Positions 26,329-60,501 are shown, counted from the first letter of the stretch. The stretch: DNA of 64,000 nt from a virus (IMGVR_UViG_3300006153_000006); one strand, 5' to 3'. Made by a program: numbers and translations. The notes: generated from the sequence alone by a model not told the origin.

Positions 26329-26334
26329 TGGAGC

Positions 26335-30253: not shown

Positions 30254-31269
30254 CTCAACGCTGTTTCGTTCACACTCATTACAAAATCGTTTACTTTTTT
30301 CATGTCCGGTGCGTCTGGAAGACTCGTATCCTCCGCCGCCTTCCGCATCTTGACCTCATACTCGTCCACCAGGCGAAAGAAGGCGTCGTCGTATGTACCG
30401 TCCTCATGCATATAGGCGCCGTTGCGGATACTCATGAGAAGGTCAAGGTCATCCCCGCGATAGGTCACAATATCACCCTTCTCCAGGATGTCGATACAGA
30501 TAAGGTATAGGCGGATGAGGTGCATGGCGTGTTTGTTTAGATGGTTATCGTCCTTTTTCTTATTCCTGTGGTTCAACCCCTTGTAGTCGGAGACGATATT
30601 GGAGAGGGTGTTCAGCATAACGCTGAAATCGCGCACCGGATACTTCTTGAGGTCAACATCACACAAGACCTCCACGTCAAGATCGTCCCGTTTGCTGTCC
30701 CCGATGGACAAAGAGACAGCCCCACCGTCGAAGTCGGAATACATCGTCTCAAAATGCTTGACGGCCCTTTCCATGGAGCCAAGCATCATACGTTCTCTGT
30801 CCGCCTGAGTCATCCGGTCTTTGGCAAGGGCGTTCTGAAGACGCCGAAGCTGCTGTGTTGCGTACCCACCAAAGGAATTGACCGCCCGGCGGGTAAGGAA
30901 CAGTTTTCTGTTCTCGATAACGCTTTTACCGATGTCCGTGATATAGAAATAATGCTCCGGCTTGCAGCCAAGCAGTTCGATCACGTTGGGGTTACAGTTC
31001 AGTAACAGCTGCACCAGTTTATTAAAGGAGTACACCGTCGTATCCGTCTCGGAATTGACGACCTGCTCGAAATTGGTAAGGCCGAGGAGGTCGCTCCTGC
31101 TGTTCAGAGCGCAGCCACGGACATCTACGTCAGATGAGGGGATATTTGTCCCGTATGCGTAGCTCCCTCCAAGAGTCAGGAAGATGATATTGTCGCCCAT
31201 GTGCTGATTAGTACGGAGGAAGTCATATTCCTGGCCGGAGACCATAGTTTTGATCTGTTCAAGGGTCAT
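30241..31269 (-). CDS. Polymerase-beta-superfamily nucleotidyltransferase
   Basis: GGSYAYG ... SDVDVRG (GS ... DxD) signature. Confidence 0.5.
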   Translation of the reverse strand: MTLEQIKTMVSGQEYDFLRTNQHMGDNIIFLTLGGSYAYGTNIPSSDVDVRGCALNSRSDLLGLTNFEQVVNSETDTTVYSFNKLVQLLLNCNPNVIELLGCKPEHYFYITDIGKSVIENRKLFLTRRAVNSFGGYATQQLRRLQNALAKDRMTQADRERMMLGSMERAVKHFETMYSDFDGGAVSLSIGDSKRDDLDVEVLCDVDLKKYPVRDFSVMLNTLSNIVSDYKGLNHRNKKKDDNHLNKHAMHLIRLYLICIDILEKGDIVTYRGDDLDLLMSIRNGAYMHEDGTYDDAFFRLVDEYEVKMRKAAEDTSLPDAPDMKKVNDFVMSVNETALRCGV

Positions 31270-31463
31270 GCCGCATCTCCTCCGTTTCCGAAATCATCCT
31301 CAAGGGCAAGTGTTACATGGTCTTGATAGTGGTCATTGTCAAACAGCGTAATCCTGAGATAGCTCTTCTCCGGATCGAAGTCAAGCTGGAGAGACGCGTT
31401 CTCATAACCCAACCGTTTGAGATCGATCTCCTTGTTTGTCAAAAATTCATACGGCATATCCAA
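31266..31463 (-). CDS. Hypothetical small protein
   Basis: ORF only. Confidence 0.2.
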   Translation of the reverse strand: MDMPYEFLTNKEIDLKRLGYENASLQLDFDPEKSYLRITLFDNDHYQDHVTLALEDDFGNGGDAA

Positions 31464-31469
31464 TGCTCC

Positions 31470-31970
31470 TCACTGTTCGACTTCATTTTTGTTGTTCCAA
31501 TCCAGCTTCCAATGCAGTTCTTCAGCCTTCATAAACTCCAACAAGGTAAAGCCCACTGTTGTATTACATTTGATAAGGTGATCTGCAAGATGCCCAACAT
31601 TGGACTCATCGTCCAGAATGATAAAGACATCTACCTCCGGGTGTTCATCCAGCCACATCTGGATCTCGTCGCCACGACGGCTGCCATGCGTACCTGGAAG
31701 GTTCGGAGTTTTCCCGAGGATCTCGATACCATCCCGTAGTCCGCCGTTCAACAGACACTCGCGGTAGTTCTCTCTGTTTCTCCATGAGCTCGACACAACG
31801 ATGCTGTACCCGTACTTCTGGCAGAACTCAGACACCCACTGGACGCACTGGAAATTGTTGACCTTGTTGTCTTGGGGGAAATTGTATGTACACTTCTCCC
31901 CCGTCTCGTCCCACATGGGCGTGTTGACTACTCCGTCATAGTCGAGAAAAAGCACATTCACTGAGCCCAC
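31470..31970 (-). CDS. HAD-family phosphatase (polynucleotide 3'-phosphatase-like)
   Basis: LFLDYDGVVN DxDGV motif; sits between the nucleotidyltransferase and the RNA ligase. Confidence 0.5.
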   Translation of the reverse strand: MGSVNVLFLDYDGVVNTPMWDETGEKCTYNFPQDNKVNNFQCVQWVSEFCQKYGYSIVVSSSWRNRENYRECLLNGGLRDGIEILGKTPNLPGTHGSRRGDEIQMWLDEHPEVDVFIILDDESNVGHLADHLIKCNTTVGFTLLEFMKAEELHWKLDWNNKNEVEQ

Positions 31971-32066
31971 CTCCGCACAAATTGAATTTAATTAGCACTA
32001 TTAGCCTGCATAACGAAGCCTTAAACCCTTTACATGCCAAGGTTTTCGGCGGTGTTCAATCTTCAA

Positions 32067-33153
32067 TTACTCGTCATTTGCCAGAAGGAACTCCGGGTTA
32101 ATGACCTTGAAGCTGATGTTCTTTTCATAGTTGCGGATCACAACGCCCTCCCGTTTCTTCCCGGGAAGAAGAACGGTGTTGCCCTTGGCGAACTCCACCA
32201 TATCCGCAATGGTATCCTTGAGAACCATATCAGTTTCAACAACTGGAACGCTCATGATCCCGTACTTGGCAAGCGTCTCTGTCATTTCAAAGGTATTTAC
32301 TTTGCGTCCTTGACGAATAAGGTTGAAGGCATAAAGCTCATACTCTTTTCGCTCATACTTGTTCTTCTGGATGCCCGGGCCGATGATCTCGCCCTGAAGA
32401 ACGATAGTATCCGCATCGCCAATCAGAGAGCGAAGCACTTTTTCAATGTCATACTTCCGCGCCACCGTCCAGTAAGAGCTTCCGTCTGGCTTGCCAAGGC
32501 GAACATTTCTGGAACAGACACCGAACTCATACTTCTTTCGCCCAATCTTACGAAGGAAGAATGTGCCGGACTGGCCATCGACCTTCTCCGTCGCGGAGAA
32601 GTGTGTACCTGCCCCCCCGCTCCTGCTCGAACATGATCGTCTTGTTCTGGATACGCTCCTCGTCGGTCTTGACGATCCAATCCGGGAACCCACCATTCTT
32701 CTTTGGGCCAAGCGCGAGCTTTCGGAACCACGCAAATCGGCACATAAAACCAAATAGTTTCCCATGCTTCTTCTTATTCTTTGCCGCCAGAAGAGCCTGC
32801 TCCTGCTCCGCCTGCGGGTCGTACTTCTTGACACCGAGAACATCTGTTACGTCATCGTCAAGCTCATAGGTACGTCCATTTGGAAGGACTGACATCGGCA
32901 GGACAAGTCCCTGTGAGATCTGTCCGCGCAGCTTGATTGTTTTGACGCGGAACTTACGCTTCCGCAGGAACTCATATTCCGGTTTCTCCGGCATGATGGA
33001 ATCAACCTCAACATAGACGACCTTATCACCAATGTTGAACTCATCTTTCTGGATGACGCACTCCCATCCATCTACCTGTGCGACAACGATCTTGTCCGCC
33101 CCTTCAATAGGCCGAATATCCGCAATCTGTCGGACTGTTGCAAGTCTTCGCAT
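32067..33153 (-). CDS. ATP-dependent RNA ligase (KxDG), interrupted by a frameshift at a poly-G tract
   Basis: EKVDGQS nucleotidyltransferase motif I in the downstream frame, N-terminal domain in the upstream frame; the frames join at a C7 run (plus strand) near 32594-32600 (FEQERGG | AGTHFSATEKVDG). Confidence 0.7.
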
Positions 33154-35874: not shown

Positions 35875-36177
35875 CTATCTTGTTGGCATTAAATACCTGT
35901 TGGTTAAGATGAGCTCTGCATCTGTTCCGGGAGGAATACAACGAATAGACGTTACAGTCATCCAACTCATCGTATTATGAAACCTCTCCAGTGCTTCCTC
36001 TTTTGTTCGTCCAAGAACATGATGCGTTGAAACGGGGTGCTGCTTCGCATATGTGGCCTGTATTTCCCACAGCCACACGCCCTCCTTTAGAATACACCTA
36101 TCAAGAACCTCACCTTCTCCATACTCTGTTTTGAACGGCTTATATATGAGGGTACACATTAGGCAATATCTCACCAT
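35875..36177 (-). CDS. Hypothetical protein
   Basis: ORF only. Confidence 0.25.
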   Translation of the reverse strand: MVRYCLMCTLIYKPFKTEYGEGEVLDRCILKEGVWLWEIQATYAKQHPVSTHHVLGRTKEEALERFHNTMSWMTVTSIRCIPPGTDAELILTNRYLMPTR

Positions 36178-36920
36178 GTTGTTCGATCCTCCTCTGACAG
36201 AATGCGGTCTATGTCGTGGAGCGTTTTATCTGAAAATGTGTTCCATTTATTGAAGGCAACATCCTCAAGTTCAAGGCTGACGTATTTCCGCCATGCATCT
36301 GGATACCTTTTCCTTATATCCCTATGCTCGGTCAGTTTTGCGTTCGGGCAGAACCAACACCCGCCTCTGCTGGAGAGGCCATAGGTTGGACTTAACAACC
36401 CATACTCTTTGCACAATTCCATCGCATCTTGTTCTGTGAGGCCATATTTCTCCAGAAGAGAGATATTGTTTGTTCTGTGCAGGCTTGCAAGACGCCTCGG
36501 TTCGTCGGCTGCAATCCCAACATACTGGATATATTCACCCTGTATGGCCTTGTAATAGGCACCGATTGCCCTCATTTTACAATCCCGTTTTACAGAGCAA
36601 AGGCCGTTTGGAGGGAAACCATATTTCATTCCCTTGTGTTCCATGTGCTTTGTTGGTTTCTCGATTATTCTGTTGAAAACAGAGAGAAAATCCCTGTCCG
36701 AGTGAACTATGTCTACTTGATATCCCCACCGCTCAAACAGTGGAGATGCCACGTTCTTGACGAAATCAATGTGCTGCGGGTTCTCGCCGCTTATCCCCGC
36801 TTCTTTGTCGAACATTACTTCGGCAAACACAATACTATCAACCGGCTCATTATATATGTGTGCCAGGATAACGCTTGCCGTGCTATCTTTGCCGCCCGAC
36901 CAGCTGACTGAATAGTGCAT
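36171..36920 (-). CDS. PAPS-reductase-like PP-loop ATPase (intact paralog)
   Basis: SWSGGKDS PP-loop, YVGIAADEPRRL and SRGGCWFCPN; full-length counterpart of the frameshifted gene at 8061-8845. Confidence 0.7.
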   Translation of the reverse strand: MHYSVSWSGGKDSTASVILAHIYNEPVDSIVFAEVMFDKEAGISGENPQHIDFVKNVASPLFERWGYQVDIVHSDRDFLSVFNRIIEKPTKHMEHKGMKYGFPPNGLCSVKRDCKMRAIGAYYKAIQGEYIQYVGIAADEPRRLASLHRTNNISLLEKYGLTEQDAMELCKEYGLLSPTYGLSSRGGCWFCPNAKLTEHRDIRKRYPDAWRKYVSLELEDVAFNKWNTFSDKTLHDIDRILSEEDRTTW

Positions 36921-37604: not shown

Positions 37605-37674
37605 TCAAATCACCACCCGTGCGCGATAACAAGAAAGCCCGCCGGACATCCGGCGGGCTTTACCTTACTGTTTG

Positions 37675-38532
37675 TTACTGCGTTCCTCCGATGGTCACAA
37701 ACGGATTGACAGTAGAACCCATAACCTGTGGCCACTCACCATTCCATTTCTCCACCATCTGAAGCTGTGTATATTCCGGACTGGAGGAAAGCTGTTCCTG
37801 GATGACCTGGATCGCATATGCCTCAGCGTCGGCAGCCAGCTTCTTGGCATCAGCTTCCGCCTGAGCCGCAATAAGGAGCTGCTTTGCCTCCTCTTCTTTT
37901 GCGACGGTCTCGTTCTGTTTGCGGAGTGCCTCCTGTTCGGCGGCAACCTTTGCCCGAATCACATCCTCGAAGCTATCCTCGAAGTCGAGGTTCTTAATGT
38001 TGAAGGCATGGATATTGATGCCATATGTGGCAAAGGACTCACGGAGTTCCGCCTCCACCTGCTCCTGAAGCATAGAGCGATTCTGCACAAGCTCTTCCGC
38101 CTTATATTTACCAGTCGCATTCTTGGTCACAGAGTTTACCTGCGGCACAATCAGCTTGGACTCAACATTCCCAAGGCCAATCGTCTGGATGATATTTTCC
38201 AGTTGTGACACATCATACGACCAGTTGACAGTAAACTCGATCCCCTCCACTGTCTGCGTGTCACGAGTGTAAGCGGAAATCGTACCTTCGTATACCTGCT
38301 CACGAGTATCGACTGTTTCGATGCGCTGGACAAACGGGGCGTGCCATTTCCAACCAGGTGTGAGCCCGGTCTCCACGACCTCGCCAAACTGATACTTTAT
38401 GCCGACATATCCCTGCTGGATAGTCTTATGGCCAAAGAGCAGACAAATCAGAGTGATGATTGCCAACACCACGAGCACTACCGCGATGATCGGCGTATAA
38501 TTACGAACCCTTCTATTCGATCCTTCCATAGT
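37675..38532 (-). CDS. SPFH/Band-7 (stomatin/HflC-like) membrane protein
   Basis: N-terminal TM helix followed by an SPFH core and a C-terminal coiled coil (EEAKQLLIAAQAEADAKK). A poly-C7/poly-A7 tract lies just upstream of the RBS. Confidence 0.7.
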   Translation of the reverse strand, partial: TMEGSNRRVRNYTPIIAVVLVVLAIITLICLLFGHKTIQQGYVGIKYQFGEVVETGLTPGWKWHAPFVQRIETVDTREQVYEGTISAYTRDTQTVEGIEFTVNWSYDVSQLENIIQTIGLGNVESKLIVPQVNSVTKNATGKYKAEELVQNRSMLQEQVEAELRESFATYGINIHAFNIKNLDFEDSFEDVIRAKVAAEQEALRKQNETVAKEEEAKQLLIAAQAEADAKKLAADAEAYAIQVIQEQLSSSPEYTQLQMVEKWNGEWPQVMGSTVNPFVTIGGTQ

Positions 38533-38599: not shown

Positions 38600-39058
38600 C
38601 TACTTACGGTACAATGTGAGATGGCAGTCGGAGAATATATTAACAAGCACATCAACGACTGCGCCCCAATCTCCGCCGCCAAGACCACATCCGATGCGAT
38701 ACGGCATGGCTATTGTCTCCCCTGGCTTAACCCTGTTTTTCAGGGTGTAAAAGCACTTCTTTAGTGCTTCTATATCTGTATGCACTGCGCCATCGCGGCC
38801 ATAGGAGAATTGCCCGAACATATTGACGACCTTTGTTTTGTCTGTCACTTTTACAAACTGTATTTTACCGAGGAGTTCCTCTCTGCCGTGTTCTTTGGAA
38901 TACTTCTCAACGGCGTTGTGATAGCTTTGGTAAACGCATGGCCATTTCGTGCGGATCTGTTTCGCCACGCCGCTTCCCATAACGCCCATGCAGTTCACCT
39001 GGTGGCAGATATATTCGGCGGTAGCGTTCAGAAGGTCGCCGTCAACAATACGGATCAT
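38600..39058 (-). CDS. Macro-domain (ADP-ribose-binding/processing) protein
   Basis: IVDGDLLNA ... HQVNCMGVMGSGVA ... GCGLGGGDW macro-domain motifs. Confidence 0.75.
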   Translation of the reverse strand: MIRIVDGDLLNATAEYICHQVNCMGVMGSGVAKQIRTKWPCVYQSYHNAVEKYSKEHGREELLGKIQFVKVTDKTKVVNMFGQFSYGRDGAVHTDIEALKKCFYTLKNRVKPGETIAMPYRIGCGLGGGDWGAVVDVLVNIFSDCHLTLYRK

Positions 39059-39477
39059 GCTTCGTCACCATCAACCCTGATCGGCTGTACCAAAACACGG
39101 GGATAGTAGACCCGATTGACCATACGGGCTTCGGCCCGTCTTGTTTTTCCGAGGACTTCGTTGAGCTGTCGATAGAAATCGACCCCCAGCTTGGAGCCCA
39201 TAAGCTCGGCGAGAGGATCCAAAAGCTCCACGGTATCCTTGTTCTCTCTTCGCTTTTTGCGGCAGTGCATCAGCTGCGTCGCCACCTTTGCCCTCTCGCT
39301 GTAATCGAGGTTCTCAAGCTCGATCCTGTGCAGGAGGTCTTGCTGAAGCCCATCCATTTGGTGAACTTCCTCATAGCACCGCTCTCTGTCGCGCACCGCG
39401 TCGTTCAAAACCTTGATAAATTCAGACAGGCAGGTGGACAGCTCCGGTGTCTCTTTTCGTTTCGACATCTTGTTCAC
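39055..39477 (-). CDS. Hypothetical protein
   Basis: ORF only. Confidence 0.25.
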   Translation of the reverse strand: MNKMSKRKETPELSTCLSEFIKVLNDAVRDRERCYEEVHQMDGLQQDLLHRIELENLDYSERAKVATQLMHCRKKRRENKDTVELLDPLAELMGSKLGVDFYRQLNEVLGKTRRAEARMVNRVYYPRVLVQPIRVDGDEA

Positions 39478-39785
39478 CTCCCACCTATTAAGTCTAAGAA
39501 TTTTGAATCGTCTTCCGGGTCAAAGGACAATTCTTCCACAATGCTTTCTACCATTGACGCCGGCCATACCCAGCTTTTATCAACTTGAGCAGGTGCCTCT
39601 CCAACATCTTCTGCTATCGTGAAATATCCTCTGTTTGGATATACGCCCAATACCGTCACAACTTGCCCAAAGTATTTTTCCATCTTCGGATGGCAATGCA
39701 AACCGCTTTCAATGCACCGCCATGTCTTGTAAAATTGTACCAACATACCAGGTTGAAGTTCGCTGATTTCGATCAGACCCTCCAT
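39474..39785 (-). CDS. Hypothetical protein
   Basis: ORF only. Confidence 0.25.
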   Translation of the reverse strand: MEGLIEISELQPGMLVQFYKTWRCIESGLHCHPKMEKYFGQVVTVLGVYPNRGYFTIAEDVGEAPAQVDKSWVWPASMVESIVEELSFDPEDDSKFLDLIGGR

Positions 39786-39958
39786 ACGTTCACCACCTAT
39801 CCAAACCTGTGTTCACCATAACCCATGTTGTCAGCAAGGTCAGGTGGCGTAGCGATATCTATCACCGCTGCCACGGCCTCCTCCGCCATAATACATAAAA
39901 ATGCAGATCACAATCACAACGCCAAGCAAAACAAAAACGGAAAACTGCCCCATAATAC

Positions 39959-40744
39959 TTATCCCTCGTTGTATGGGAGCTTGGGAGAGATCAGCTCGCG
40001 GTTTTGGAGGAGGCGGAACGATGGCATAGGCTCCAGTTTATGTCTGTTCCTTGCGTGCAAATCATCAATGCGCCTTTTGGTCGCAACGTCAGCACACTCA
40101 CCGGTGGCAATATAGTTGTCCAAAACGGCGTAAGTGAATCCAAGATTATCCTCGTCAGATTTTCCACACAATCCATCTGACGGAATCTTGCTCACAAGCT
40201 CGTTGGGGAGACCGAGCTCCTGCCCGATCTGCAAAACCTCATTCACCAGAAGGTTGGAAAGCGGGCTGAAATCGCCTGCGCTGTCGCCGAATTTTGTGGA
40301 ATACCCGACATAATCCTCTGAAAGATTGCAAGTATTTGCCACACGCCCGCCGTTCGGGAGCGACTGAGCAACCGCATAGAGGATCGACATACGGATACGG
40401 GCCGGCAGGTTGACGATGGCCTGCTCGTTTGGCTCGCATCCGACCCGTGACAGCCTGTCATGTATAGCTTCAACCGCATCGCCGATATTTACTGTAATAC
40501 TGCGAATACCAAGCATCTCCACCAGCTTTATGCTGTCGTTTATGTCAGCCTGATAGCAGTTCGGCATCAAAACACCGAAGACCCTATCCTTTCCAAGGGC
40601 CTCGACACATAGGGCGGCGACCACACTGGAGTCCTTCCCTCCGGAGATACCCACCACGGCGGAACACTCTGGCCCGTTCTTTACAAAATAATTGCGAATC
40701 CAGTTGATAATGTCGTGTATTGTTTCATTTGGATTTTTCAACAT
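39959..40744 (-). CDS. nadE: NH3-dependent NAD+ synthetase
   Basis: VVGISGGKDSSVVAAL PP-loop and NadE-like length and pattern. Confidence 0.8.
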   Translation of the reverse strand: MLKNPNETIHDIINWIRNYFVKNGPECSAVVGISGGKDSSVVAALCVEALGKDRVFGVLMPNCYQADINDSIKLVEMLGIRSITVNIGDAVEAIHDRLSRVGCEPNEQAIVNLPARIRMSILYAVAQSLPNGGRVANTCNLSEDYVGYSTKFGDSAGDFSPLSNLLVNEVLQIGQELGLPNELVSKIPSDGLCGKSDEDNLGFTYAVLDNYIATGECADVATKRRIDDLHARNRHKLEPMPSFRLLQNRELISPKLPYNEG

Positions 40745-40773
40745 ACTGTTCACCGTCCTATTCTTATTTGGAT

Positions 40774-40808
40774 ATAAAAAAAACCACCGAGAGCCAAGGC
40801 CTCGGTGG
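40774..40808 (-). terminator. Rho-independent terminator
   Basis: CCACCGAGGCC ... GGCTCTCGGTGG hairpin followed by U8 on the minus strand. Confidence 0.5.
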
Positions 40809-40820
40809 TAGTCTATTCGG

Positions 40821-41312
40821 TCATTCACTCCTGAGCGGAACAAGGATCTTTCTAAACCCAAGCGTTACCCTTGTTTTATGGTTAAGCAGCGGATAAATCT
40901 CAACATCGTCTGCATACTGGGAAGCTCGCAGGAACCACTGCTTGTGGCAAAAATCAATATCGGCGGCTTCCATTTCTATAAACCCAATATCCGGAGCAAG
41001 ATCATCTCTTTTGCAAACAAAATTCAGGCTTTCTTCCTCGACTCTGATCCCGTTCTTCACAATGGCAGATGCAATGCTGATACGCCTTACAGCTTCTGGG
41101 TTGAGAATATACACCTCATTCCTCGGCAAGGACTTCATCTGTTCAATCAGCGCATCGACTTCAGCAAAGTCCTCGTCGTCAAACTCTTCCTTATCGTATT
41201 CAAAATCCTGCAAACTTGTCACCTCTTTCCGTTGTTCTGCTCCCTGATTATAGCATTGTTGATGGAAAAATGAAAGATTAAAATTCCCCGTTGTAAAGAT
41301 TGGCGCGGACAT
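40821..41312 (-). CDS. Hypothetical protein (start uncertain)
   Basis: ORF overlaps the upstream gene end; an internal start is likely. Confidence 0.25.
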   Translation of the reverse strand: MSAPIFTTGNFNLSFFHQQCYNQGAEQRKEVTSLQDFEYDKEEFDDEDFAEVDALIEQMKSLPRNEVYILNPEAVRRISIASAIVKNGIRVEEESLNFVCKRDDLAPDIGFIEMEAADIDFCHKQWFLRASQYADDVEIYPLLNHKTRVTLGFRKILVPLRSE

Positions 41313-42783
41313 TTTTCAGCGAGTAGAGCTTGGTAAAGTTTCCATCTTTGAACACCGTGATGAGTTCGTTCCCGCTCTGTGCCTGCTGCCATGTAAGGCC
41401 GTCCTCGTAGGCGTAGCCCGTATCCGTCTTGAACACCCGGCAACAGCCGCGCTGCGACTTCTTGAAGTGCCCGGAGTCTGTCTTGGGGTTCTTGAAGATC
41501 ATGATGGGCTTACCATCTTTATCTTCCGCATAGGTCGCCTTGACGGCGATACCAAAGGTGTCGCGGGTATAGGGGCGATAAGTCGGGCGGATCTTACCGG
41601 TGTCCCAGTCCTCCTCAAAGTCCTCCAGACACTCCATGGAGAAAGAACCCACGCCAAGAGCGACATTGCTGACGGCGAACCCGTTGTTTTCCAGAATCTG
41701 ATAGATACGCTGGCAGCGCTGAGGCGTAATACTGTCGCCGTAGAGAGCCTTGACGTGGGGGTTCAGCACCTTAAATCCCTTGGCATTTACACTGCCGCCA
41801 AAGATGTCCCACAGCTTGAACACGGTTTTGGTGACCACATCCACCGGGTCACCGCTGTCTCCACGGATCGAAATACAGCCTTCGTGGGCCAGGATCTCGT
41901 CTTTGAGCTGTGGAAGAATATTCTCCACCAGGTTCCAGTAATCATAGCTGTCACTGACCACCGAGAAGCTCTTGTGCGGGTAGATCTCCGTCAACAAGCG
42001 GCGCATGTGCGTCACCTCATCGCTGTCAATGGCGAAGTTGGAACACATCACGCTGTGCTCCGTGGACAAGGCGCCGTACGCCACAGGCTCTTCATCGGCG
42101 CGGCACGCATAGTTCTTTTCCAGCCAGAGAATGGCCGGAACAGTCGCCGTGTTCAGGAAACTCAGGCAGAAGGCCGCCGAGCTCTTTGTGGCGCTTTCTA
42201 CGCTCTCCTGTCCGCGCATAGAAAAATCGCCAAGGAGCCTCGCCGGAACAACATCGTCATCACAAGTGCGCTTCGCATACTCGTTGACGATCTTCCGATA
42301 GCGATAGCCAACCTCGGCGGATACCTGTGTGTGCCACATGGAGCAAGAAAGCATCGTTTCAATGCTGTTCACCAACCACACGAAGTCAGGATGTGTGTTG
42401 GATATCTCGATTTGCGGAACATGAATGTCCGTCCGTACGCCCTCCGGGACAGCCCGGATCTCCAACGGCAAATAGCCCAGATCGTGCAGGCCTTTCAGTC
42501 TGTCGTGGCCAACACCGTCTGTTCCGATGGTAGCTCCGAGAACCCTCGTGTACTCATCCCAGACCTGATCGAACGGAACGCCAAAGAAATACTCGTTAAA
42601 CGCTTCAATGAGGTACTCATTGATAAAAGCCTGAAGACCAAACAGCGTGACCTTATCGACATCTTCAAGCCTCGACATTCTCGGCGTATAATAGGAGGCC
42701 ATCTTGGTCAGGCCGACTGGGTATTGCTCGGCATGTGCTGTCTTATAAAAGTCCAAGCAAAGCAACGGATTGTAACGGATCAT
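41278..42783 (-). CDS. Nicotinamide phosphoribosyltransferase-family enzyme (NadV/Namat-like)
   Basis: LDFYKTAHAEQYP, LPLEIRAVPEG, VVSDSYD and IRGDSGDPVD correspond closely to NAMPT signature segments. Confidence 0.85.
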   Translation of the reverse strand: MIRYNPLLCLDFYKTAHAEQYPVGLTKMASYYTPRMSRLEDVDKVTLFGLQAFINEYLIEAFNEYFFGVPFDQVWDEYTRVLGATIGTDGVGHDRLKGLHDLGYLPLEIRAVPEGVRTDIHVPQIEISNTHPDFVWLVNSIETMLSCSMWHTQVSAEVGYRYRKIVNEYAKRTCDDDVVPARLLGDFSMRGQESVESATKSSAAFCLSFLNTATVPAILWLEKNYACRADEEPVAYGALSTEHSVMCSNFAIDSDEVTHMRRLLTEIYPHKSFSVVSDSYDYWNLVENILPQLKDEILAHEGCISIRGDSGDPVDVVTKTVFKLWDIFGGSVNAKGFKVLNPHVKALYGDSITPQRCQRIYQILENNGFAVSNVALGVGSFSMECLEDFEEDWDTGKIRPTYRPYTRDTFGIAVKATYAEDKDGKPIMIFKNPKTDSGHFKKSQRGCCRVFKTDTGYAYEDGLTWQQAQSGNELITVFKDGNFTKLYSLKNVRANLYNGEF

Positions 42784-42784
42784 A

Positions 42785-42985
42785 TTAAAGCCTCCCATTC
42801 AACTTCTTTGCGAGATAAACAGCGAACGCAAACGGGGAAAGAGCGGGCCATAAAACGCCGACAAAAATGTAATCACCTACATCCACATACTCCGGGTACG
42901 TCCGGTTTTTCAGGTTCAAATAGTACAGCGTGAATGTGATAACAGCGCCTATGACAACATACAGGAAGACATACAGCAATATCAT
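42785..42985 (-). CDS. Small membrane protein
   Basis: 66 aa with two hydrophobic helices. Confidence 0.3.
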   Translation of the reverse strand: MILLYVFLYVVIGAVITFTLYYLNLKNRTYPEYVDVGDYIFVGVLWPALSPFAFAVYLAKKLNGRL

Positions 42986-42988
42986 ATA

Positions 42989-43804
42989 TTAACACCGATC
43001 CTTTCCGAGGACGATTATTTTCTCGTGATTGCCCCGATAAATACTATCGGTTGTGAAGACCTTTTCAATTAAACCGGACTCTATAATCTCACCATCGAAA
43101 ATTGTATTCTCGCAGTGGGTCACATAGAGGTAAACCTCCCCGGCCCCCGCTTCCTTGAGAGCATTCGCGGTGTGCATAAACGTTCCGCCACGAGAGCAGA
43201 TGTCGTCCACAATCAAAACAGTTTTCCCGTTCACGATCTCGGCATTGGTCAAGGATAAGCCCTGTATCTTACCAGTCCTCCAATCCCGATGCTTGATACC
43301 AAACACATAGGGGCGGCCCTGAAGCTGCTCGGAATACTTCTTTGTCGCACCTTCATCCGGATAGCAAAGTACAGTTTCATGATCGCCAATCCATGAGAGC
43401 ACGCGAATCACGTTGTCCATAACGCCCCGCACCTCGACCCTGTCAATGAGCGCCGTTGCGACATTGGAGTGCGGGTCTGTCACAATGACCTTGTCAAAGC
43501 CAAGCGTATTGATGAACTCTGCAAACCATTTGAGTGTGAAAATTTCATCCTCATTTTTCACGCGATCCATTCTTGCGTTGGGGATATACGGAAGCTCAAG
43601 AGAAATCCCGATATGGGGGATGCGGCTCCGAATATGATGAACGATGTGCCACAGAACCATACACTCATGATCTCCATCGTATTTCCACAGAATGGAAACT
43701 CCATCCTGACTACGTAGCTCTATGTGGGCGGTGCTTACACGAGCAGACAGCGTATAGTCCGGAAAATGCTTCTGTTCAACGTTCTGGCCGTCAATATAAA
43801 TCAT
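42989..43804 (-). CDS. Ribose-phosphate pyrophosphokinase-like enzyme (Prs/Adps-like)
   Basis: PRPP-binding loop VLIVDDICSRGGT and an N-terminal Prs-like half; shorter than cellular Prs (271 aa). Confidence 0.8.
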   Translation of the reverse strand: MIYIDGQNVEQKHFPDYTLSARVSTAHIELRSQDGVSILWKYDGDHECMVLWHIVHHIRSRIPHIGISLELPYIPNARMDRVKNEDEIFTLKWFAEFINTLGFDKVIVTDPHSNVATALIDRVEVRGVMDNVIRVLSWIGDHETVLCYPDEGATKKYSEQLQGRPYVFGIKHRDWRTGKIQGLSLTNAEIVNGKTVLIVDDICSRGGTFMHTANALKEAGAGEVYLYVTHCENTIFDGEIIESGLIEKVFTTDSIYRGNHEKIIVLGKDRC

Positions 43805-44165
43805 GCTACCCCTCCTATCCCAAACAGGTCAAACATTTCACTGTCGCTGGAACATTCTATTTCGGATGTATCCCCAAGGTAAATGACCCTTTTATATTCG
43901 TCATATTGCCGTCCATCGTAGTCAGACTTGTAGCCTCTTTTCATCAGAACGGAGCTACCAGATGTATAGAGACGAACACAGTCCATATCCCCCATGCTAT
44001 CTTCGCTCGCCGATGCTCCTGTCACCCATCGAACGCCGAGCAAATCTATATGCCGAAGAAACTCTGGCCTCAGCTGTTTCTCTGGAACCCAAACAATCAC
44101 ACTGACACAGTCTCCTTGCACCATGCTGTCAGAAAATTCTTCCTCCCACATAGAGCGACCCCCAA
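43801..44165 (-). CDS. Hypothetical protein
   Basis: ORF; the longer annotated start overlaps the downstream gene. Confidence 0.25.
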
Positions 44166-44717
44166 TCATTCGTTTTCGATACTGATCTGGCACATCTTCA
44201 TGGCGGCAAGAGCGTTCCGATGGCTCTCCGGCGTCACGCCTGCACAGCATGAGGCATCAACCGAGATCGGAATTTCCGGAAAGAATGCCTTGATGAGTAA
44301 AGCGTTGGAGATAACGCAGATATCCGTACACAGACCGACCAGCGTAATGGAATCAATGCCATTCTCATCGCTGATTGCATTCAAAATGTCTGGGAGATCC
44401 CGACTGCCAAACGTTTCCTTATATAAAGTAACCGAGCGCTGGATATGGCTATCATCTTTTTGGGCAGCGACTGCATCAGCCACCTCTTCCCGAAGCTTCC
44501 ACCCGTCCGTTCCGTAAATGCAGTGCGGAACCGGAAGATTTTTCCCTTCGAGAGTGTTGAGATAACCTTCTTCGTGGGTATCCATCGTGCAGATGATACC
44601 GCCGTCCCATCCCTGGATCTTGGAAACCGCATTGTCAACGATCTCCTGCGCTTCTTTGGTGCCAAGAGAACCGTCGATAAAGTCGTTCTGCATATCTACT
44701 ACCACAAGGATCTTCAT
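44166..44717 (-). CDS. Isochorismatase-family hydrolase (nicotinamidase PncA-like)
   Basis: MKILVVVDMQNDF start, catalytic Cys context (LVGLCTDICV), 183 aa. Confidence 0.75.
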   Translation of the reverse strand: MKILVVVDMQNDFIDGSLGTKEAQEIVDNAVSKIQGWDGGIICTMDTHEEGYLNTLEGKNLPVPHCIYGTDGWKLREEVADAVAAQKDDSHIQRSVTLYKETFGSRDLPDILNAISDENGIDSITLVGLCTDICVISNALLIKAFFPEIPISVDASCCAGVTPESHRNALAAMKMCQISIENE

Positions 44718-44968
44718 TTCTTTTGTCCTCCGTTATTTTGCTTTTTTCAATGTTGTCTGTATGCGGTGGCCTTGTCTTGGGTCGAGGCCAAGCATATACC
44801 GGAAGTGCCACCTCGTGCGTCTGGCTTGACTAAAATATGCCCTGCATATTTTAGTTCAAGGCACTCGCACGAGGTGCAGCACCCCACTTGATACTTCTAC
44901 CATCGGTAAGAAGCTGTCGCCGTATGTATCAGGAACAATCAGCAACAAATCTACACAACATCGGGGGC
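44718..44968 (-). repeat. Structured intergenic element (a), divergent member of the family around the RT gene
   Basis: Shares the hairpin motif CTTCT(T)ACCATCGGT(A/G)AGAAG and the flanking TACTTCT with elements at 46697, 48184 and 49441; also contains a roughly 36-bp near-perfect hairpin at 44775-44850. Confidence 0.4.
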
Positions 44969-45667: not shown

Positions 45668-45742
45668 TGGAGCTGGTAGTAGGACTCGAACCCACGACAC
45701 TCGACTTACAAAACCGATGTTCTACCACTGAACTATACCAGC
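45668..45742 (-). tRNA. tRNA-Thr (anticodon UGU), CCA encoded
   Basis: Cloverleaf: GCTGGTA acceptor, GTTC/GAAC D-stem, anticodon loop TTTGTAA, T-loop TTCGAGT, 3' CCA. A perfect 8-bp hairpin follows. Confidence 0.75.
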
Positions 45743-45879
45743 GTAAATGGTGCCACGACACATCATGACACCAAGCTCTACGTCCGCAAAACACCGTGTG
45801 CACCCGGCTGGTTTCTCCTCCTTTGGCCCTCGGAGATCAACCCAAGTACCTGTCGGAAAAAGCATAACCAATAGAGCAA

Positions 45880-45955
45880 TGGAGCTGGAGACGGGACTTG
45901 AACCTGTGACAAGACGCTTACGAAGCGCCCGCTCTACCGACTGAGCTACTCCAGC
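45880..45955 (-). tRNA. tRNA-Thr (anticodon CGU), CCA encoded
   Basis: GCTGGAG acceptor, GCTC/GAGC D-stem, anticodon loop TTCGTAA, T-loop TTCAAGT. Confidence 0.75.
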
Positions 45956-45998: not shown

Positions 45999-46679
45999 TT
46001 AAAGCAGAGGAACCACCTTATTGTACAAAGCAACAAACTGCTCGTTTATTTGCCTATCAATATGATAATGACCAAAAAACCATCGCTTGAATGTAAGATC
46101 TTGCCTGACTCTTTCGTGAAAGCTCACGATCGGGTCGTTTTCGTACCATTCCGCGATAAACTGTTGTACACTTCTTGGCGCACAATGTGTAATGACATAG
46201 TCTACTTCCCAGTTGACGGCTTCGAGAGCTTGCACGGCGCGTTCCATCTCGTCATTGGACGGGATCTCCTGCGGCCACCACGAGATATGTTCTCTCCGCT
46301 GTGCCTTATCCACAGAGCGTGCACCACCCATCACGTAGATCTTCTTCCCGCCGATCGTTAAGACCTGTCCGCGCTCCAAATGATAGATGCTTTCGGTCAC
46401 CTGACGGACATAGCCGCCGAACATGGGAATGAGTTTCAACTCGCGAAGAATATCGAAGTTCTCGTGGTTACCGTCCACAAATAACGTGGTAAAGGGCTTG
46501 TTTGCCAGCCAATCCTGCCAGTACATTTCCCTTGCGGAACCATACCAGACCAGGCCGAAGTCGCCAGCGATTATTACATAGTCGCTTTTGCTCAACTCTT
46601 TCTGCTGTGGAAAATTCCTCGTATTCAGCTTGGAGATATCATAATCGGCGTGCGTATCGCCAGTTACATAGACCATACC
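45999..46679 (-). CDS. Calcineurin-like metallophosphoesterase
   Basis: VYVTGDTHADYD, GDFG, DGNHE and FGHYH motifs; the annotated 90-aa N-terminal extension is probably not translated. Confidence 0.7.
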   Translation of the reverse strand, partial: GMVYVTGDTHADYDISKLNTRNFPQQKELSKSDYVIIAGDFGLVWYGSAREMYWQDWLANKPFTTLFVDGNHENFDILRELKLIPMFGGYVRQVTESIYHLERGQVLTIGGKKIYVMGGARSVDKAQRREHISWWPQEIPSNDEMERAVQALEAVNWEVDYVITHCAPRSVQQFIAEWYENDPIVSFHERVRQDLTFKRWFFGHYHIDRQINEQFVALYNKVVPLL

Positions 46680-46696
46680 TTTTACTCCTTCAAAAA

Positions 46697-46986
46697 AATG
46701 TGATCTCATAGAGAATAATAGACATCTGGAGACGGAGTCTACGGCGTCTTGGATGTGTGGGAGCCGAGTCATGTCGGCGAACTGGTGTGCCATCCTGTTC
46801 TGATTTTGGTGCGAGATGTCTCGATTCTGGGGGTTTGCTGCGATCGGCATCGCGTATTTCCGTCGCCAATGACTCAGCGTTCGAGCTGGCGTGTTTGCGC
46901 AGCCTCCTGCTGCCCCGTCTTTCATCCAGCTATTTGTTACTTCTACCATCGGTGAGAAGCACCGCGAACGGTTATACATCACATTT
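46697..46986 (-). ncRNA. Structured intergenic element (b) with 9-bp terminal inverted repeats
   Basis: AAATGTGAT ... ATCACATTT termini. The 3' 55 bp is near-identical to element (d), and the central hairpin motif is shared with (a) and (c). Confidence 0.45.
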
Positions 46987-46995
46987 GTTTTGTAA

Positions 46996-48183
46996 TTATC
47001 TCAGGTCTTCCCTAATGCACGCTATGATATCTACGCCATACTTTTTGCTTGCATGTTCGACGATCTTGTCTATCACATCCTTTTCCACCATCCGGTAGTA
47101 GTTGTAATAGCCATCGAGCGTTCTGATATCGCCCGCCTCCCATGGTGTACCGTTTTTCCGGTCAAAGATGTAATTGTGGATCATATTCTGGAACTGCTGC
47201 TTCCGCCGGTACCCTATGGTAATATTGTTGTCCTTGTTGAGCATGACACCGAGGTTCCAGTTCCGCCCAGCAGAAGACCCATACCGTGTCTTTTTGACGT
47301 TCAATGAGAACGGCGCATGATACTCTTCCAGCGTCCTCAGCAACAGGTCTTGTACCTGCCAGATGTCGAATGCGTACCTGGATGAGATGATGAAATCGTC
47401 CGCATACCTGGTATATATCATCCTCTGCTTCAGCGGGGTCTCCTCGCCGTCAGCGCCGGTCAGAACACCGGCACGCTCAAACTCCATATACCTCAGCCTT
47501 TTGTTCAGGTTAAAGTCGATGGGGATCATCATGATGTTTGTAATCGTCGGGGACACCGGGGTGCCTTGAGGCAGACCCCCATTCAGAGTTGCAAGTTCAA
47601 GTGCCTTCTCAAGCTCAGCACGCCCTTCCTCTGTCCTAACGACCTCGCTGAACGGGAACACCATGCTGAACTGCTGCATCATAAACTCCAAAGTTGTGCT
47701 GCCAAAGAAATCATGGAGGTCAAACTTCCCAAACCAGCGGCTCTCGTTCTGCTGGTGACGCTTTACCGCATCAATGGTACAACGGCCCTTAATGTATGCA
47801 AACGCGGAGGTATGATAAAGGGCGTGAAAGTCCTCCTCAAAAATCAGCTTGAGCTGACGGAGCGCGTTCATCAATTCCGGCAGAGGCTCATCTATTTTGC
47901 GCAGACCACCGGACTTCTTTGGGATATGGAATGTATGGTACAAATCACTCCTCTTGGACTCTCTGAGCTTTTCAGTACCTGCATTGAACTCCTTCAGCTT
48001 TCTAACCAAGTAGCCAATATTGAGGCCATTTGTAAAGCGTTCGCTCACTTCCTCAACGGCATACGTTTTTGTGTTTCCTACACTTGTGTTATACGGTGCA
48101 TAATCAGAAAAGCTTTGCGAGATAAACTCTTCAAAAGTCATCTGATGATACATCGGAGATTGATGGACTGTAATGTACACCAC
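46996..48183 (-). CDS. Reverse transcriptase (retron/unknown-group type; QGxxxSP and YADD)
   Basis: RT motifs FHIPKKSGGLRKIDEP (1/2), GKFDLHDFFGST (A), LPQGTPVSP (4) and YTRYADDFII (C); GTG start with GGAGG RBS. Confidence 0.85.
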   Translation of the reverse strand: MVYITVHQSPMYHQMTFEEFISQSFSDYAPYNTSVGNTKTYAVEEVSERFTNGLNIGYLVRKLKEFNAGTEKLRESKRSDLYHTFHIPKKSGGLRKIDEPLPELMNALRQLKLIFEEDFHALYHTSAFAYIKGRCTIDAVKRHQQNESRWFGKFDLHDFFGSTTLEFMMQQFSMVFPFSEVVRTEEGRAELEKALELATLNGGLPQGTPVSPTITNIMMIPIDFNLNKRLRYMEFERAGVLTGADGEETPLKQRMIYTRYADDFIISSRYAFDIWQVQDLLLRTLEEYHAPFSLNVKKTRYGSSAGRNWNLGVMLNKDNNITIGYRRKQQFQNMIHNYIFDRKNGTPWEAGDIRTLDGYYNYYRMVEKDVIDKIVEHASKKYGVDIIACIREDLR

Positions 48184-48516
48184 TTTCGTTTCCTCCTTCC
48201 TTTTTTAGTTGCCTGTAACCAAAATAGAGGCTGCTGCCTGGTGCTTTGGATCTATCTTTATGGTTTGGCTGCAAGTGTCATCTGAGCTACGTCATCTGAC
48301 ATGTGGTCTGGCATTCGATTCATTGCGGCTGTATTGTTTGCTGGTGTCCTGTCGGGTTTCTGGTGTTTCGTGACATTGAGATTCTTTATTACTCAAGCTT
48401 GAAGACGTCAAGTAGCTCCTTGTGCGCCTCTTTCTTTTCCTGGCTATTTGTTACTTCTGTCTTCGACGAGAAGCTCGTTTTTTCAAAACGACATTTCGTT
48501 ACAGGTTTTTGCGCAC
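48184..48516 (-). ncRNA. Structured non-coding element (c) immediately upstream of the RT gene, with 8-bp flanking inverted repeats
   Basis: CCTGTAAC / GTTACAGG repeats at 48205 and 48500 in an a1/a2-like arrangement; contains the UCGUUUU/AAAACGA hairpin and the shared GCUUCUC ... GAAGUAACAAAUAGC motif. Confidence 0.45.
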
Positions 48517-49440: not shown

Positions 49441-49714
49441 CTATGTGATCTCATATAGATTCTGACTCATCCGTACAGGATCCGGAAGATTTTCCTTCAG
49501 TGGGCGGAGGAGGCGTTCGGCGCCAGATGCTTTGGGTGGCTCCCCTGAATCGGACACTCTTCTGGGTGTGGTTCGCTTCTTGAGCGCACCTGACCAGCAG
49601 CGTCTCTTGCCGGCGAGCTCAGGTGCACTGGGCTGCCTGGTGTCTTCTTTCTCTCAGCTATTTGTTACTTCTACCATCGGTGAGAAGCACCGCGAACGGT
49701 TATACATCACATAG
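49441..49714 (-). ncRNA. Structured intergenic element (d) with 9-bp terminal inverted repeats
   Basis: CTATGTGAT ... ATCACATAG termini, covarying with element (b); 55-bp 3' identity to (b). Confidence 0.45.
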
Positions 49715-49719: not shown

Positions 49720-50397
49720 TTAAAACGCATCCAACATAAAGTTGAATGCGTCAATGAGTACGAGCTTTTTAATTGGCTTTCCATTCCAAAAATTCATGAA
49801 ATTTGCCACACCAAGAGCACATACCATCCGAACAGTCGGACAGACAGAAAGTGTGATGCGGCAAGCGGACATCGGTGTTTCTTCTTCCGCCTCTTCATGA
49901 GAGAACTCCATGGACGCCAGAAAATCTTTCTTCATCTTGTAGTCAGACCAATCGGCTGCGTAATGCTGCGCATCCTCCAGCCTTGTGCGGAAATCAAACA
50001 TCGCTTTGACATATTGGTTGTCCATGTGCTTCTCCACAATGGCCCGACGAAGTTCGATATTATCCACACACAAGAACACAAACCCGGAAAGCTGCTGACC
50101 ATCCCAACCCTTGCTCTCCAGCTTAATATCGTCCTCGGCATCCGGGTTGATCTCCAGGATCATATCTCTGACAGCCTCCACTTTTGGCCGCCCGACATCT
50201 TTCTGGCGAAACATCTGATTTGCCAAATTCTTGGGTTCGACAACATCAAAATCCCAAAGCACAAACTTTGTCAGACCGTTTCTTGCCAGCATTTCCGCGA
50301 CGGTCGAGCCGACAGACCCACAACCTACGATGTGGATCTTGGCGGGATGCTTCTCCGGCTGAAAAACATCATAGCTTTTTGACAAGTCCATTTCCAT
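49720..50397 (-). CDS. ThiF/MoeB-family E1-like adenylyltransferase
   Basis: IHIVGCGSVGSTVAEMLARNG Rossmann motif, 225 aa. Confidence 0.7.
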   Translation of the reverse strand: MEMDLSKSYDVFQPEKHPAKIHIVGCGSVGSTVAEMLARNGLTKFVLWDFDVVEPKNLANQMFRQKDVGRPKVEAVRDMILEINPDAEDDIKLESKGWDGQQLSGFVFLCVDNIELRRAIVEKHMDNQYVKAMFDFRTRLEDAQHYAADWSDYKMKKDFLASMEFSHEEAEEETPMSACRITLSVCPTVRMVCALGVANFMNFWNGKPIKKLVLIDAFNFMLDAF

Positions 50398-53740: not shown

Positions 53741-53809
53741 ATTTTTCCTCATATTGTTTGCTGTTTTTTTCGTACCACTTTTCGTGGTACGGATTTATTC
53801 GATTAGGGA

Positions 53810-54469
53810 TTAGAATGCGAAAGCGGGGGCCAGCCCAAAGGAAAGACTCGCATAGTTGTAGTAGGCGCCGCCGTCGGTGTACACAAAGCAGAAGTAGCTG
53901 CTGCCGTTGCAAAAAGGGGAACGCAACAGCAGATATTCTCTGTCGCCTCTTCTCACTTTGTAGTACGGCACATCCTCCTGCCGGTAATATTCATACCAAT
54001 GTCCCTCGCCAGGAGCTGAGTAGATGCACCTGCCGAACAGCTCTTTCTCGGACTTGATAAAAAATCTATCCTCGGTTTCTATCAGCTCATTGCTGCCATC
54101 AAAAGTGTTTGCGGTCAACTTTAGAACGGGAACCGCCACGTCGATGATCTCGTCCGGCATGAGTTCAAATATGCTTTCGCCTGGCTCATTCATCATCCTG
54201 CGCAGCTTGGTCGCTGCCCAAGACCCCTCATTTGTGTCTGCATCATTCCATGGATAACGCTGTGGCATACAATCAACCATTTCCCACGTCAGAGGTAGAA
54301 TAAGCCCGTCTTTAGTTCTGTCGTGATTTCTCCCAATAATTCTAAACTCGACTGGGGTTCCGTCTTTCAGAACGGCACTTTTTGTATCGCCAACATTGAA
54401 CATGGAGGCTGCCGCAGGGCCAAAACCCCTTATCGTCCTCCATGAATACTCCTCCAAGGCTCTTGGCAT
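53810..54469 (-). CDS. Paralog A of a putative receptor/ligand-binding protein with a DGR-like variable C-terminus
   Basis: 219 aa; homologous along its length to the 59627 gene. The last 35 aa lie between the conserved LLRSP and GLAPA flanks and differ only at codon positions 1 and 2. A GC-rich GGGCTGGCCCCCGC stretch and a hairpin follow. Confidence 0.5.
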   Translation of the reverse strand: MPRALEEYSWRTIRGFGPAAASMFNVGDTKSAVLKDGTPVEFRIIGRNHDRTKDGLILPLTWEMVDCMPQRYPWNDADTNEGSWAATKLRRMMNEPGESIFELMPDEIIDVAVPVLKLTANTFDGSNELIETEDRFFIKSEKELFGRCIYSAPGEGHWYEYYRQEDVPYYKVRRGDREYLLLRSPFCNGSSYFCFVYTDGGAYYNYASLSFGLAPAFAF

Positions 54470-55163: not shown

Positions 55164-55240
55164 TGGTCTGAGTGGAGGGACTCGAACCCTCGGCCTCGTG
55201 ACCCCAAATCACGCCGTCTACCAACTGACATTACACCCAG
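55164..55240 (-). tRNA. tRNA-Pro (anticodon UGG), CCA encoded
   Basis: Acceptor CTGGGTG/CACTCAG, anticodon loop TTTGGGG, T-loop TTCGAGT. Confidence 0.7.
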
Positions 55241-55243
55241 ATT

Positions 55244-55334
55244 TGGCGGCGGAGGTGGGATTTGAACCCACGGGCGGGATTCCCACCAGCGGTTTTCAAG
55301 ACCACCGCATTCAGCCAGACTCTGCCACTCCGCC
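55244..55334 (-). tRNA. tRNA-Ser (anticodon UGA), type II with long variable arm, CCA encoded
   Basis: Acceptor GGCGGAG/CTCCGCC, anticodon loop CTTGAAA, variable arm TGGGAATCCCGCC, T-loop TTCAAAT. Confidence 0.7.
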
Positions 55335-55344
55335 GTTTTTATCG

Positions 55345-56891: not shown

Positions 56892-56900
56892 ATCACCGCC

Positions 56901-58612: not shown

Positions 58613-58652
58613 AATCTTACCCCCCTACCGAAGTGCTGTTTTATAAAGAATG

Positions 58653-60500: not shown

Positions 60501-60501
60501 A

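Follow-up and report, generated by a model that had tools for sequence, protein, structure and literature searches.

By which route would a phage rebuild nicotinamide adenine dinucleotide (NAD+) if it carries, in one block of genes, the two enzymes of the NARP1 pathway together with a nicotinamidase, an NAD+ synthetase and a macro-domain protein? The question is raised by positions 38600 to 44717 of IMGVR_UViG_3300006153_000006, a 64,000-nucleotide stretch of viral DNA (referred to as the window) which comes from a large temperate phage whose hosts are gut bacteria of the Oscillospiraceae. Our comparison of the encoded proteins and of their gene neighbourhoods suggests that the block is probably a NARP1-based phage module for NAD+ reconstitution, re-routed through deamidated intermediates. 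A little less firmly, we lean towards a reaction that has not been described so far, in which nicotinate and ADP-ribose pyrophosphate (ADPR-PP) would yield nicotinate adenine dinucleotide (NaAD) and which, with the nicotinamidase, Adps and NadE, would form a self-contained pathway of phages and bacteria. The genes concerned are the following.

44166-44717, minus strand: isochorismatase-family protein, PncA-like nicotinamidase, 183 aa (PF00857, 1e-22)
42989-43804, minus strand: Adps, Prs-like, 271 aa (phrog_619, 2e-73)
41278-42783, minus strand: Namat-clade transferase of the NAMPT family, 501 aa (phrog_448, 3e-153)
39959-40744, minus strand: NadE, 261 aa (PF02540, 3e-53; TIGR00552, 181 bits with a cut-off of 63.65)
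38600-39058, minus strand: macro-domain protein of the Adpp family, 152 aa (PF01661, 1.3e-7; phrog_335, 6e-44)

The initial annotation had listed these five NAD-related genes, and all were recovered at or near the same coordinates, on the minus strand and with family matches that agree. Genes called independently on a 96-kb contig, which encodes a transferase of 99% identity, were the same in kind and length. The clustering is not due to chance, since linkage of these genes recurs in over 50 related loci.

The NARP1 pair and the altered pocket of its transferase

NARP1 consists of Adps and Namat and was characterized in Bacillus phage SPbetaL1 (Osterman et al. 2024, bioRxiv 10.1101/2024.02.11.579819; structures in PMC12774641 and PMC13586617). 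This pair had been recognized in two central genes of the block, which are parted by a single 66-aa open reading frame (ORF), and identities of 39% (Adps) and 42% (transferase) to the validated SPbetaL1 enzymes bear the assignment out. Alignment of the Prs-like protein with both Prs and Adps, as the initial annotation had proposed, shows it to be of the shortened Adps type and far closer to SPbetaL1 Adps (272 aa; E 4e-52 over the full length) than to the best solved Prs (3.6e-13). The protein has 271 residues versus 317 for B. subtilis Prs, lacking about 24 at the N-terminus and about 22 at the C-terminus; the alignment stops at residue 286 of 317 in B. subtilis Prs, with nine query residues remaining. 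Median lengths in the Adps sets were 270-272 aa. Loss of the C-terminal alpha11-alpha12 module of Prs is a signature of the Adps family (PMC13586617), and a truncation of this type is seen in the window protein. The 17 columns with at least 95% conservation across 80 canonical Adps sequences are all retained, with R78, H112, D150, K171, D200, D201 and F209 among them. Judged by these columns, Adps is not remodelled in the nicotinamidase- and NadE-linked module, and it is predicted to convert ADP-ribose (ADPR) and ATP to ADPR-PP and AMP. Residues Arg87, His121, Asp161, Lys185, Asp212 and Asp213 and the PP loop of the F1D1Q1 structure were matched to window Adps by spacing only; the gene for the Adps of that structure, assumed to be from phage ICP1, is not in the first 50 kb of ICP1.

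The transferase is likewise a member of the Namat clade. It matches SPbetaL1 Namat with an E of 1e-132, and its top PDB matches are 9W5W and 9W5X, the structures of SPbetaL1 Namat, at about 1e-114 (3.7e-114 for 9W5W), versus 1e-44 to 1e-51 for true NAMPT structures (about 1e-44 for the human enzyme). The phosphorylated histidine and the catalytic core are conserved, TRD motif included: the core residues recognized from Namat structures that are kept comprise D13, Y15, F189, S190, R192, H245, R306 and D308 as well as G360, D361, G390, S391, F392, T398, R399 and D400. The stacking residue of the selectivity-clamp loop, Arg40, is also an Arg in the window.

The pocket for the amide is altered. 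In 9W5X, Asp215 hydrogen-bonds the amide of nicotinamide and Ala242 lines the pocket (PMC12774641); the window enzyme has A218 and S245 at these positions (numbering of the 506-aa ORF, 41278-42798). At the site equivalent to Asp215, Asp219 of human NAMPT binds the amide and Ser214 of human NAPRT directs the enzyme to nicotinate (PMC4442680; PMC7096376). Since the amide-recognizing Asp is lost, the transferase probably works via nicotinic acid, and the reaction that we predict for it is the conversion of nicotinate and ADPR-PP to NaAD and pyrophosphate. Class-specific changes were also found at SPbetaL1 positions 187, 194, 213, 239, 240 and 356, all but the last of which flank the pocket residues F189, R192, D215 and A242. 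As a class, the enzymes without the Asp have Ala or Ser at the 215 site and have gained a Ser at A242 and a Lys or Arg at 356.

Linkage of the altered transferase to nicotinamidase and NadE genes

To relate the state of the pocket to gene content, 41 viral loci were fetched via the Adps protein and 80 via the Namat alignment, and neighbours and active-site residues were scored. The Ala/Ser set (n=43) was made up of the window, Phass-1, MT835544 and 40 IMG/VR contigs. A nicotinamidase and a NadE gene were both linked to Adps and the transferase in every one of these 43 loci; neither gene was found in any of the 81 loci with the canonical Asp/Ala combination (D215/A242). The latter count was obtained with BLAST and again with hidden Markov models, on which ground we rejected the idea that BLAST had missed divergent PncA and NadE proteins. 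Asp-type operons from the same metagenomes had the two extra genes in no case, and the macro gene was present in 9 of the 81 canonical loci. The usual arrangement in the Ala/Ser loci is a tight operon of PncA, Adps, transferase, sometimes macro, and NadE (PncA, Adps, transferase, macro and NadE at 9447-13501 of locus L044, for example). Prophage copies in Oscillospiraceae and Christensenella genomes show the same linkage, and so does Phass-1 despite an identity of about 35%. These counts lend strong support to the initial annotation where it suggested NadE as the enzyme that could complete a deamidated route, since nicotinamidase and NadE are linked only to transferases without the amide-binding Asp.

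A search of 1.8 billion representative proteins showed how widespread the altered pocket is. The best 150 clusters included 92 of the Asp/Ala type, 32 Ala/Ser, 14 Ser/Ser and a few others without the Asp; about one third of the sampled Namat-like clusters (50% identity) fall in the non-Asp class, a common one among phages that infect gut Clostridia. Among divergent non-Asp representatives (43-49% identity), the nicotinamidase, Adps and transferase genes lay together in five of six readable contigs. NadE was present in four of these five, the fifth contig ending at that point. At least six gene orders were seen (T, transferase): PncA-Adps-T-NadE, PncA-Adps-T-macro-NadE, Adps-T-macro-NadE-PncA, T-NadE-PncA-Adps, NadE-PncA-Adps-T and Adps-PncA-T-NadE. 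When 153 family members were placed in a neighbour-joining tree, a single branch set off 50 of the 51 non-Asp enzymes, with no Asp enzyme among them. As these form a single clan, the Asp was lost once, and repeated independent losses were rejected. The weight of the evidence is in the persistence of the residue state and of the four-gene linkage down to about 35% identity, through repeated rearrangement. We regard the enzyme family membership, the active-site residues named here as kept or lost and the strict gene linkage as established.

The best solved relatives of the isochorismatase-family protein are the nicotinamidases 3S2S, 1ILW/1IM5, 3O90, 2WT9 and 3PL1. Its catalytic triad (D8, K100 and C134) and metal ligands (D46, H48 and H65), kept in 44 of 44 homologues, align to the nicotinamidases of P. 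horikoshii and S. mutans, and the homologue in Phass-1 is annotated as a nicotinamidase. With the full triad and metal site, and with solved nicotinamidases as nearest relatives, the earlier description of the protein as nicotinamidase-like holds good. It is a divergent member, scoring 35 bits against the NCBIfam equivalog PRK11609 (cut-off 174), and it is predicted to convert nicotinamide to nicotinate and NH3. NadE has the SGGKDS motif and is without a glutaminase domain, as in the NH3-dependent type; its predicted reaction is that of NaAD, NH3 and ATP to NAD+.

Some variants of the transferase and of its surroundings were noted in the course of these searches. A bacterial locus (L136, 128-4614) contains genes for a NrtR-like winged-helix regulator, Adps, nicotinamidase, an Ala/Ser transferase with an intact adenine-clamp motif, and NadE, and a chemotaxis receptor is encoded next to it. 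Regulators of the NrtR family respond to ADP-ribose, and the NrtR-like neighbour hints at ADPR-induced expression. A Ser/Val transferase variant (P0164) follows an Adps fragment at positions 1-1965 of locus L138, where no NadE was found within 2.7 kb downstream of the transferase; this sub-type may work differently. Many Namat-like representatives (P0121-P0270) are 560-1100 aa long, and their match to the window protein breaks near residue 318-320, which suggests that they carry inteins or inserted domains.

A proposed deamidated route and its rivals

The substrates of the transferase, the order of the steps and the anti-defence purpose are what we infer from these observations. In the proposed route, a host NADase would split NAD+ into ADP-ribose and nicotinamide, and the phage nicotinamidase would turn nicotinamide into nicotinate, freeing NH3. 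Adps would pyrophosphorylate ADP-ribose to ADPR-PP, from which the transferase without the amide-binding Asp would form NaAD with nicotinate; the NH3-dependent NadE would then amidate NaAD to NAD+. One NH3 is expected to be freed per turnover of the nicotinamidase, and we infer that it is handed over as co-substrate to NadE. The flanking enzymes fit a nicotinate route only, because the nicotinamidase would otherwise destroy the substrate of the transferase and because NadE needs NaAD. No NadD or NMNAT was found with Pfam among about 45 ORFs scanned in the window, beyond which the phage genome extends, or in the fully gene-called operons; direct formation of NaAD would thus close the pathway without host enzymes.

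The macro protein would allow a second branch to be recycled. Adpp, a macro protein of the Poa1p/TARG1-like type present in 15% of NARP1 operons, converts ADPR-1''-phosphate, the product of aRES NADases, to ADPR, and its combination with NARP1 is known as NARP1-AP (Osterman et al. 2026, bioRxiv 10.64898/2026.01.28.702374). The window macro protein and four NARP1-associated Adpp proteins all belong to phrog_335. The window protein is 27% identical over the full length to the characterized Adpp of Vibrio phage Gary (E 8e-14), and it aligns end to end with Adpps, sharing H19, N22, Q83 and the GCGLGGGDW motif. Its orthologue lies between transferase and NadE in at least 24 related loci; in the window the gene is five genes downstream of the transferase, outside the two-gene neighbourhood used as a criterion for Adpp. 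The protein is also near the DarG type (65 bits against NCBIfam DarG, below the cut-off of 250; 2.5e-9 to 5M3I), so that its substrate is a prediction. If of the Adpp type, it would convert ADPR-1''-phosphate released by RES-type NADases to ADPR, which could then enter the route above. The initial annotation had supposed that the macro domain turns modified ADPR into ADPR, which fits the published NARP1-AP and the common family with Adpp; it had also placed the macro link outside the described pathways, a view superseded by the report of NARP1-AP in January 2026.

A number of observations speak against a deamidated, ADPR-PP-dependent route. In the window, an acidic ORF and a terminator-like hairpin part NadE from the transferase, with the macro gene another three genes downstream, beyond NadE. 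The deamidated detour costs one extra ATP; for the advantage that would repay it we can only guess that hosts with PncA and PncB rapidly deamidate nicotinamide, or that the extra step gives irreversibility. On the tree, the association between residue and neighbourhood is one ancient and then conserved transition, not convergence. A solved structure of the non-Asp class was sought and none was found; 9KE8, taken up as a candidate, was rejected as being of the Asp/Ala type. The adenine-clamp helix, whose motif is GSXΦXΦXΦTRD, is interrupted in the window by a 19-aa insertion, so that the canonical clamp is not matched: the sequence is GSF-SMECLEDFEEDWDTGKIRP-TYRPYTRD versus GSFTYQYNTRD in SPbetaL1. 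Phe392 is kept, a Pro occupies the position of Tyr396, and a Tyr stands one residue off. Insertions of variable length (9-24 aa) within this motif are found in the gut clade that includes the window, and binding of ADPR-PP could be weakened by them. Finally, a bacterial locus (L133) has only a nicotinamidase and a transferase, without Adps or NadE. Such a gene set is compatible with the use of phosphoribosyl pyrophosphate (PRPP), which makes PRPP, the substrate in NAPRT, a live alternative.

The interrupted clamp and the L133 locus are both in keeping with a scheme in which the Prs-like protein makes PRPP, the transferase forms nicotinate mononucleotide (NaMN) from nicotinate and PRPP, and host NadD and phage NadE finish the synthesis, boosting Preiss-Handler salvage while ADPR stays unrecycled. 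SPbetaL1 Namat does retain PRPP activity (PMC12774641), and NCBIfam names the transferase family 'nicotinate phosphoribosyltransferase', though the name spans the whole NadV/NAMPT family. We nevertheless hold this scheme to be unlikely. The Prs-like protein sits in the Adps clade, with all invariant Adps residues and the Adps-type C-terminal truncation; an intact clamp, GIGxYTYQYxTRD, is found in the deep-branching non-Asp representatives Phass-1, P0136, P0154, P0174, P0244 and P0261; and the NadD or NMNAT that the scheme would call for was neither linked in fully gene-called loci nor found in the scanned ORFs of the window. A slightly smaller probability is given to a canonical NARP1-AP whose transferase uses nicotinamide, with nicotinamidase and NadE boosting the Preiss-Handler salvage of the host in parallel. 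Every part is singly from a known family, the effect of the Ala/Ser exchange is a prediction, and NadE and the macro gene of the window may have separate transcription. However, the phage nicotinamidase would then compete with the transferase for its substrate, the linkage in 43 of 43 versus 0 of 81 loci with loss of the Asp would be left unexplained, and several further pocket residues change alongside the Asp.

A third explanation, to which we give the least credence, concerns the purpose rather than the chemistry and is compatible with the proposed pathway: the module would recycle ADPR and nicotinamide released by ordinary NAD+-consuming enzymes, as housekeeping of benefit to a prophage-bearing cell and with no role in counter-defence. 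The relatives are prophages in cultured Oscillospiraceae and the window has an integrase; the bacterial version of the module in L136 stands next to genes for the NrtR-like regulator and a chemotaxis receptor, and NARP1 has been reported from bacteria with no role assigned to it (PMC12774641). Against it, counter-defence action was demonstrated for NARP1 and NARP1-AP, and the module is surrounded, on one strand, by phage genes for replication and RNA repair and by early genes. Altogether, these data lead us to prefer the deamidated NARP1 route over the three alternatives.

Surroundings of the module and comparison with known systems

The region from 37.6 to 44.9 kb is a single co-directional run of genes on the minus strand. 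Besides the five genes listed above, it contains the following features.

44892-44905, minus strand: core of a motif of about 30 nt (GCTTCTnnnCGAnGnnAGAAGTAnCAAnTnG), 175 nt upstream of the nicotinamidase start
43801-44151, minus strand: small ORF, 116-122 aa, without a Pfam, PHROGs or NCBIfam family match
42785-42985, minus strand: predicted membrane ORF, 66 aa, seen in a few relatives
40821-41213, minus strand: acidic ORF, 130-163 aa, occupying the place that the macro gene has in relatives
40783-40809, minus strand: terminator-like hairpin between the acidic ORF and NadE, with a 10-bp stem followed by T8
39055-39785, minus strand: two ORFs of 103 aa and 137-140 aa, the second belonging to phrog_2717
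37675-38529, minus strand: SPFH/Band-7 membrane protein, 284 aa, followed by a strong terminator (37634-37661)

On the near-identical 96-kb contig, the ORF at 43801-44151 was predicted to be a gene of 116 aa. In the related loci there were essentially no homologues of this ORF or of the one at 40821-41213; the sole weak match to the former among the fetched loci had 24% identity (L125). The phrog_2717 ORF is conserved beside the macro and SPFH genes in relatives, and no evidence for a role in NAD metabolism was obtained for either ORF at 39055-39785. The SPFH gene and several small ORFs had been placed in the same block as the NAD genes, which is correct as to position, with no sign that they belong to the pathway. 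Their inclusion as pathway parts was rejected for want of supporting evidence; the SPFH protein is a conserved neighbour and is probably outside the pathway.

The motif upstream of the module (GCTTCTCACCGATGGTAGAAGTAACAAATAGC) contains a CTTCT...AGAAG inverted repeat. Sites occur at 44892-44905, 46929-46954, about 48429-48474 and 49657-49682, all on the minus strand and 175-250 nt upstream of four consecutive transcription units, the NAD module being one of them. The 14-mer core is present in three exact copies versus 0.29 expected by chance, all on the minus strand and upstream of gene starts. We regard the motif as a putative phage promoter or operator of the module and the neighbouring units.

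Elsewhere the window carries genes for an integrase, NrdD, a Pol III-alpha-like polymerase, DnaB, a primase and ThyX and a cluster for RNA repair. No close phage relative of the island was found in INPHARED by megablast. Relatives are prophages of Oscillospiraceae (Hominicoprocola fusiformis and Dysosmobacter segnis), metagenome-assembled genomes of Christensenella and many viral contigs from the human gut. The RNA-repair cluster (27849-33153, minus strand) encodes a metallophosphatase, an HNH endonuclease, a CCA-adding tRNA nucleotidyltransferase (28895-30253), RlaP (30241-31269), a protein with the HAD_SAK_2 'Swiss Army Knife' domain (31470-31970), an RNA ligase (32067-32843) and a PHA02142 OB-fold protein. 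Ligase genes also occur beside the NAD genes of relatives: an RtcB ligase between Adps and transferase (10833-12038 of L008) and an ATP-dependent ligase after NadE. At 45999-48183 (minus strand) a reverse transcriptase gene (RVT_1, 3e-17) adjoins one for a calcineurin-like phosphoesterase. Most related phages have this pair too, directly upstream of their NAD module and with identities of 51-62% and 65-74%. Eight tRNA genes, including one for tRNA-Ile(TAT), and a gene for transfer-messenger RNA (59174-59583, tag ANNNTEIVMVHPALIAALEGAAA) were found at 45668-45955 and 55164-60932. Two DUF6273 genes (53810-54469 and 59627-60457), which may simply be paralogues or, with a reverse transcriptase also in the window, a candidate template/variable pair of a diversity-generating element, share about 260 nt of 71-76% identity at their 3' ends (53791-54057 and 59608-59877). 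Auxiliary metabolic genes occupy the regions 5422-10772, 25102-27883, 36171-36920 and 49720-50397; they encode NrdD with an activase-like Fe-S protein, NT5C 5'-nucleotidase, a deoxynucleoside monophosphate kinase, ThyX, a class-V aminotransferase (cysteine desulfurase-like), FolD, a PAPS-reductase-like protein and a ThiF-family protein.

NAD+ depletion is among the commonest anti-phage strategies of bacteria, and NAD+ reconstitution is the main known metabolic counter-measure. Were the proposed route correct, NAD biochemistry would gain a new enzyme activity, and the position of a large share of 'NAMPT-like' phage genes beside nicotinamidase and NadE genes would be explained. The route would also supply an annotation rule, based on Asp versus Ala or Ser at SPbetaL1 position D215 and on the neighbouring genes, and would point to an adaptation of counter-defence, in phages of gut Firmicutes, to hosts whose salvage uses nicotinate and not nicotinamide. 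In the literature searched, no paper was found that couples NARP1 with NadE, nicotinamidase or nicotinate, and the original NARP1 preprint (bioRxiv 10.1101/2024.02.11.579819) makes no mention of nicotinate, NadE or PncA. In gut jumbo phages, one study describes pncB-nadD-nadE clusters and NAMPT genes, without the present arrangement. The NARP1 core and its macro link are already known; the combination of nicotinamidase, NadE and modified transferase is new.

NARP3 (PnuC and NadR, PMC13464706) shares with the window module the restoration of NAD+ by a phage; neither PnuC nor NadR was found with Pfam among the scanned ORFs of the window, and nicotinic acid appears in that paper only in a generic pathway figure (PMC13464706). 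NARP3 was rejected as a prior description of the module, being an unrelated system. In NARP2 of KVP40 (NAMPT and NMNAT) the restoration of NAD+ likewise relies on a NAMPT-family enzyme, whereas the window has a Namat-clade rather than a NAMPT-clade enzyme and no NMNAT was found in its scanned ORFs. The window macro protein shares its PHROG family with the Adpp of NARP1-AP and aligns with Adpp over its full length, and in most relatives its gene is inside the operon, between transferase and NadE. Yet the window macro gene is too distant for the two-gene neighbourhood rule (bioRxiv 10.64898/2026.01.28.702374), which would miss it, and the pathway that it would feed appears to be deamidated. With NARP1, which is fed by RyDEP, the window module has in common an Adps-clade pyrophosphokinase near a Namat-clade transferase, the catalytic core with its phosphorylated histidine, and Arg40 of the selectivity-clamp loop. 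It differs in that Asp215 is replaced by Ala and Ala242 by Ser and that the clamp helix carries an insertion, as well as by the added nicotinamidase and NadE genes of window-type operons, which are absent from all 81 canonical NARP1 loci. With Preiss-Handler salvage (PncA, PncB, NadD and NadE) the module would have in common a nicotinamidase acting first, an NH3-dependent NadE last and NaAD as the intermediate; unlike that pathway it is without PncB and NadD, and Adps together with a single ADPR-PP transferase would replace both steps.

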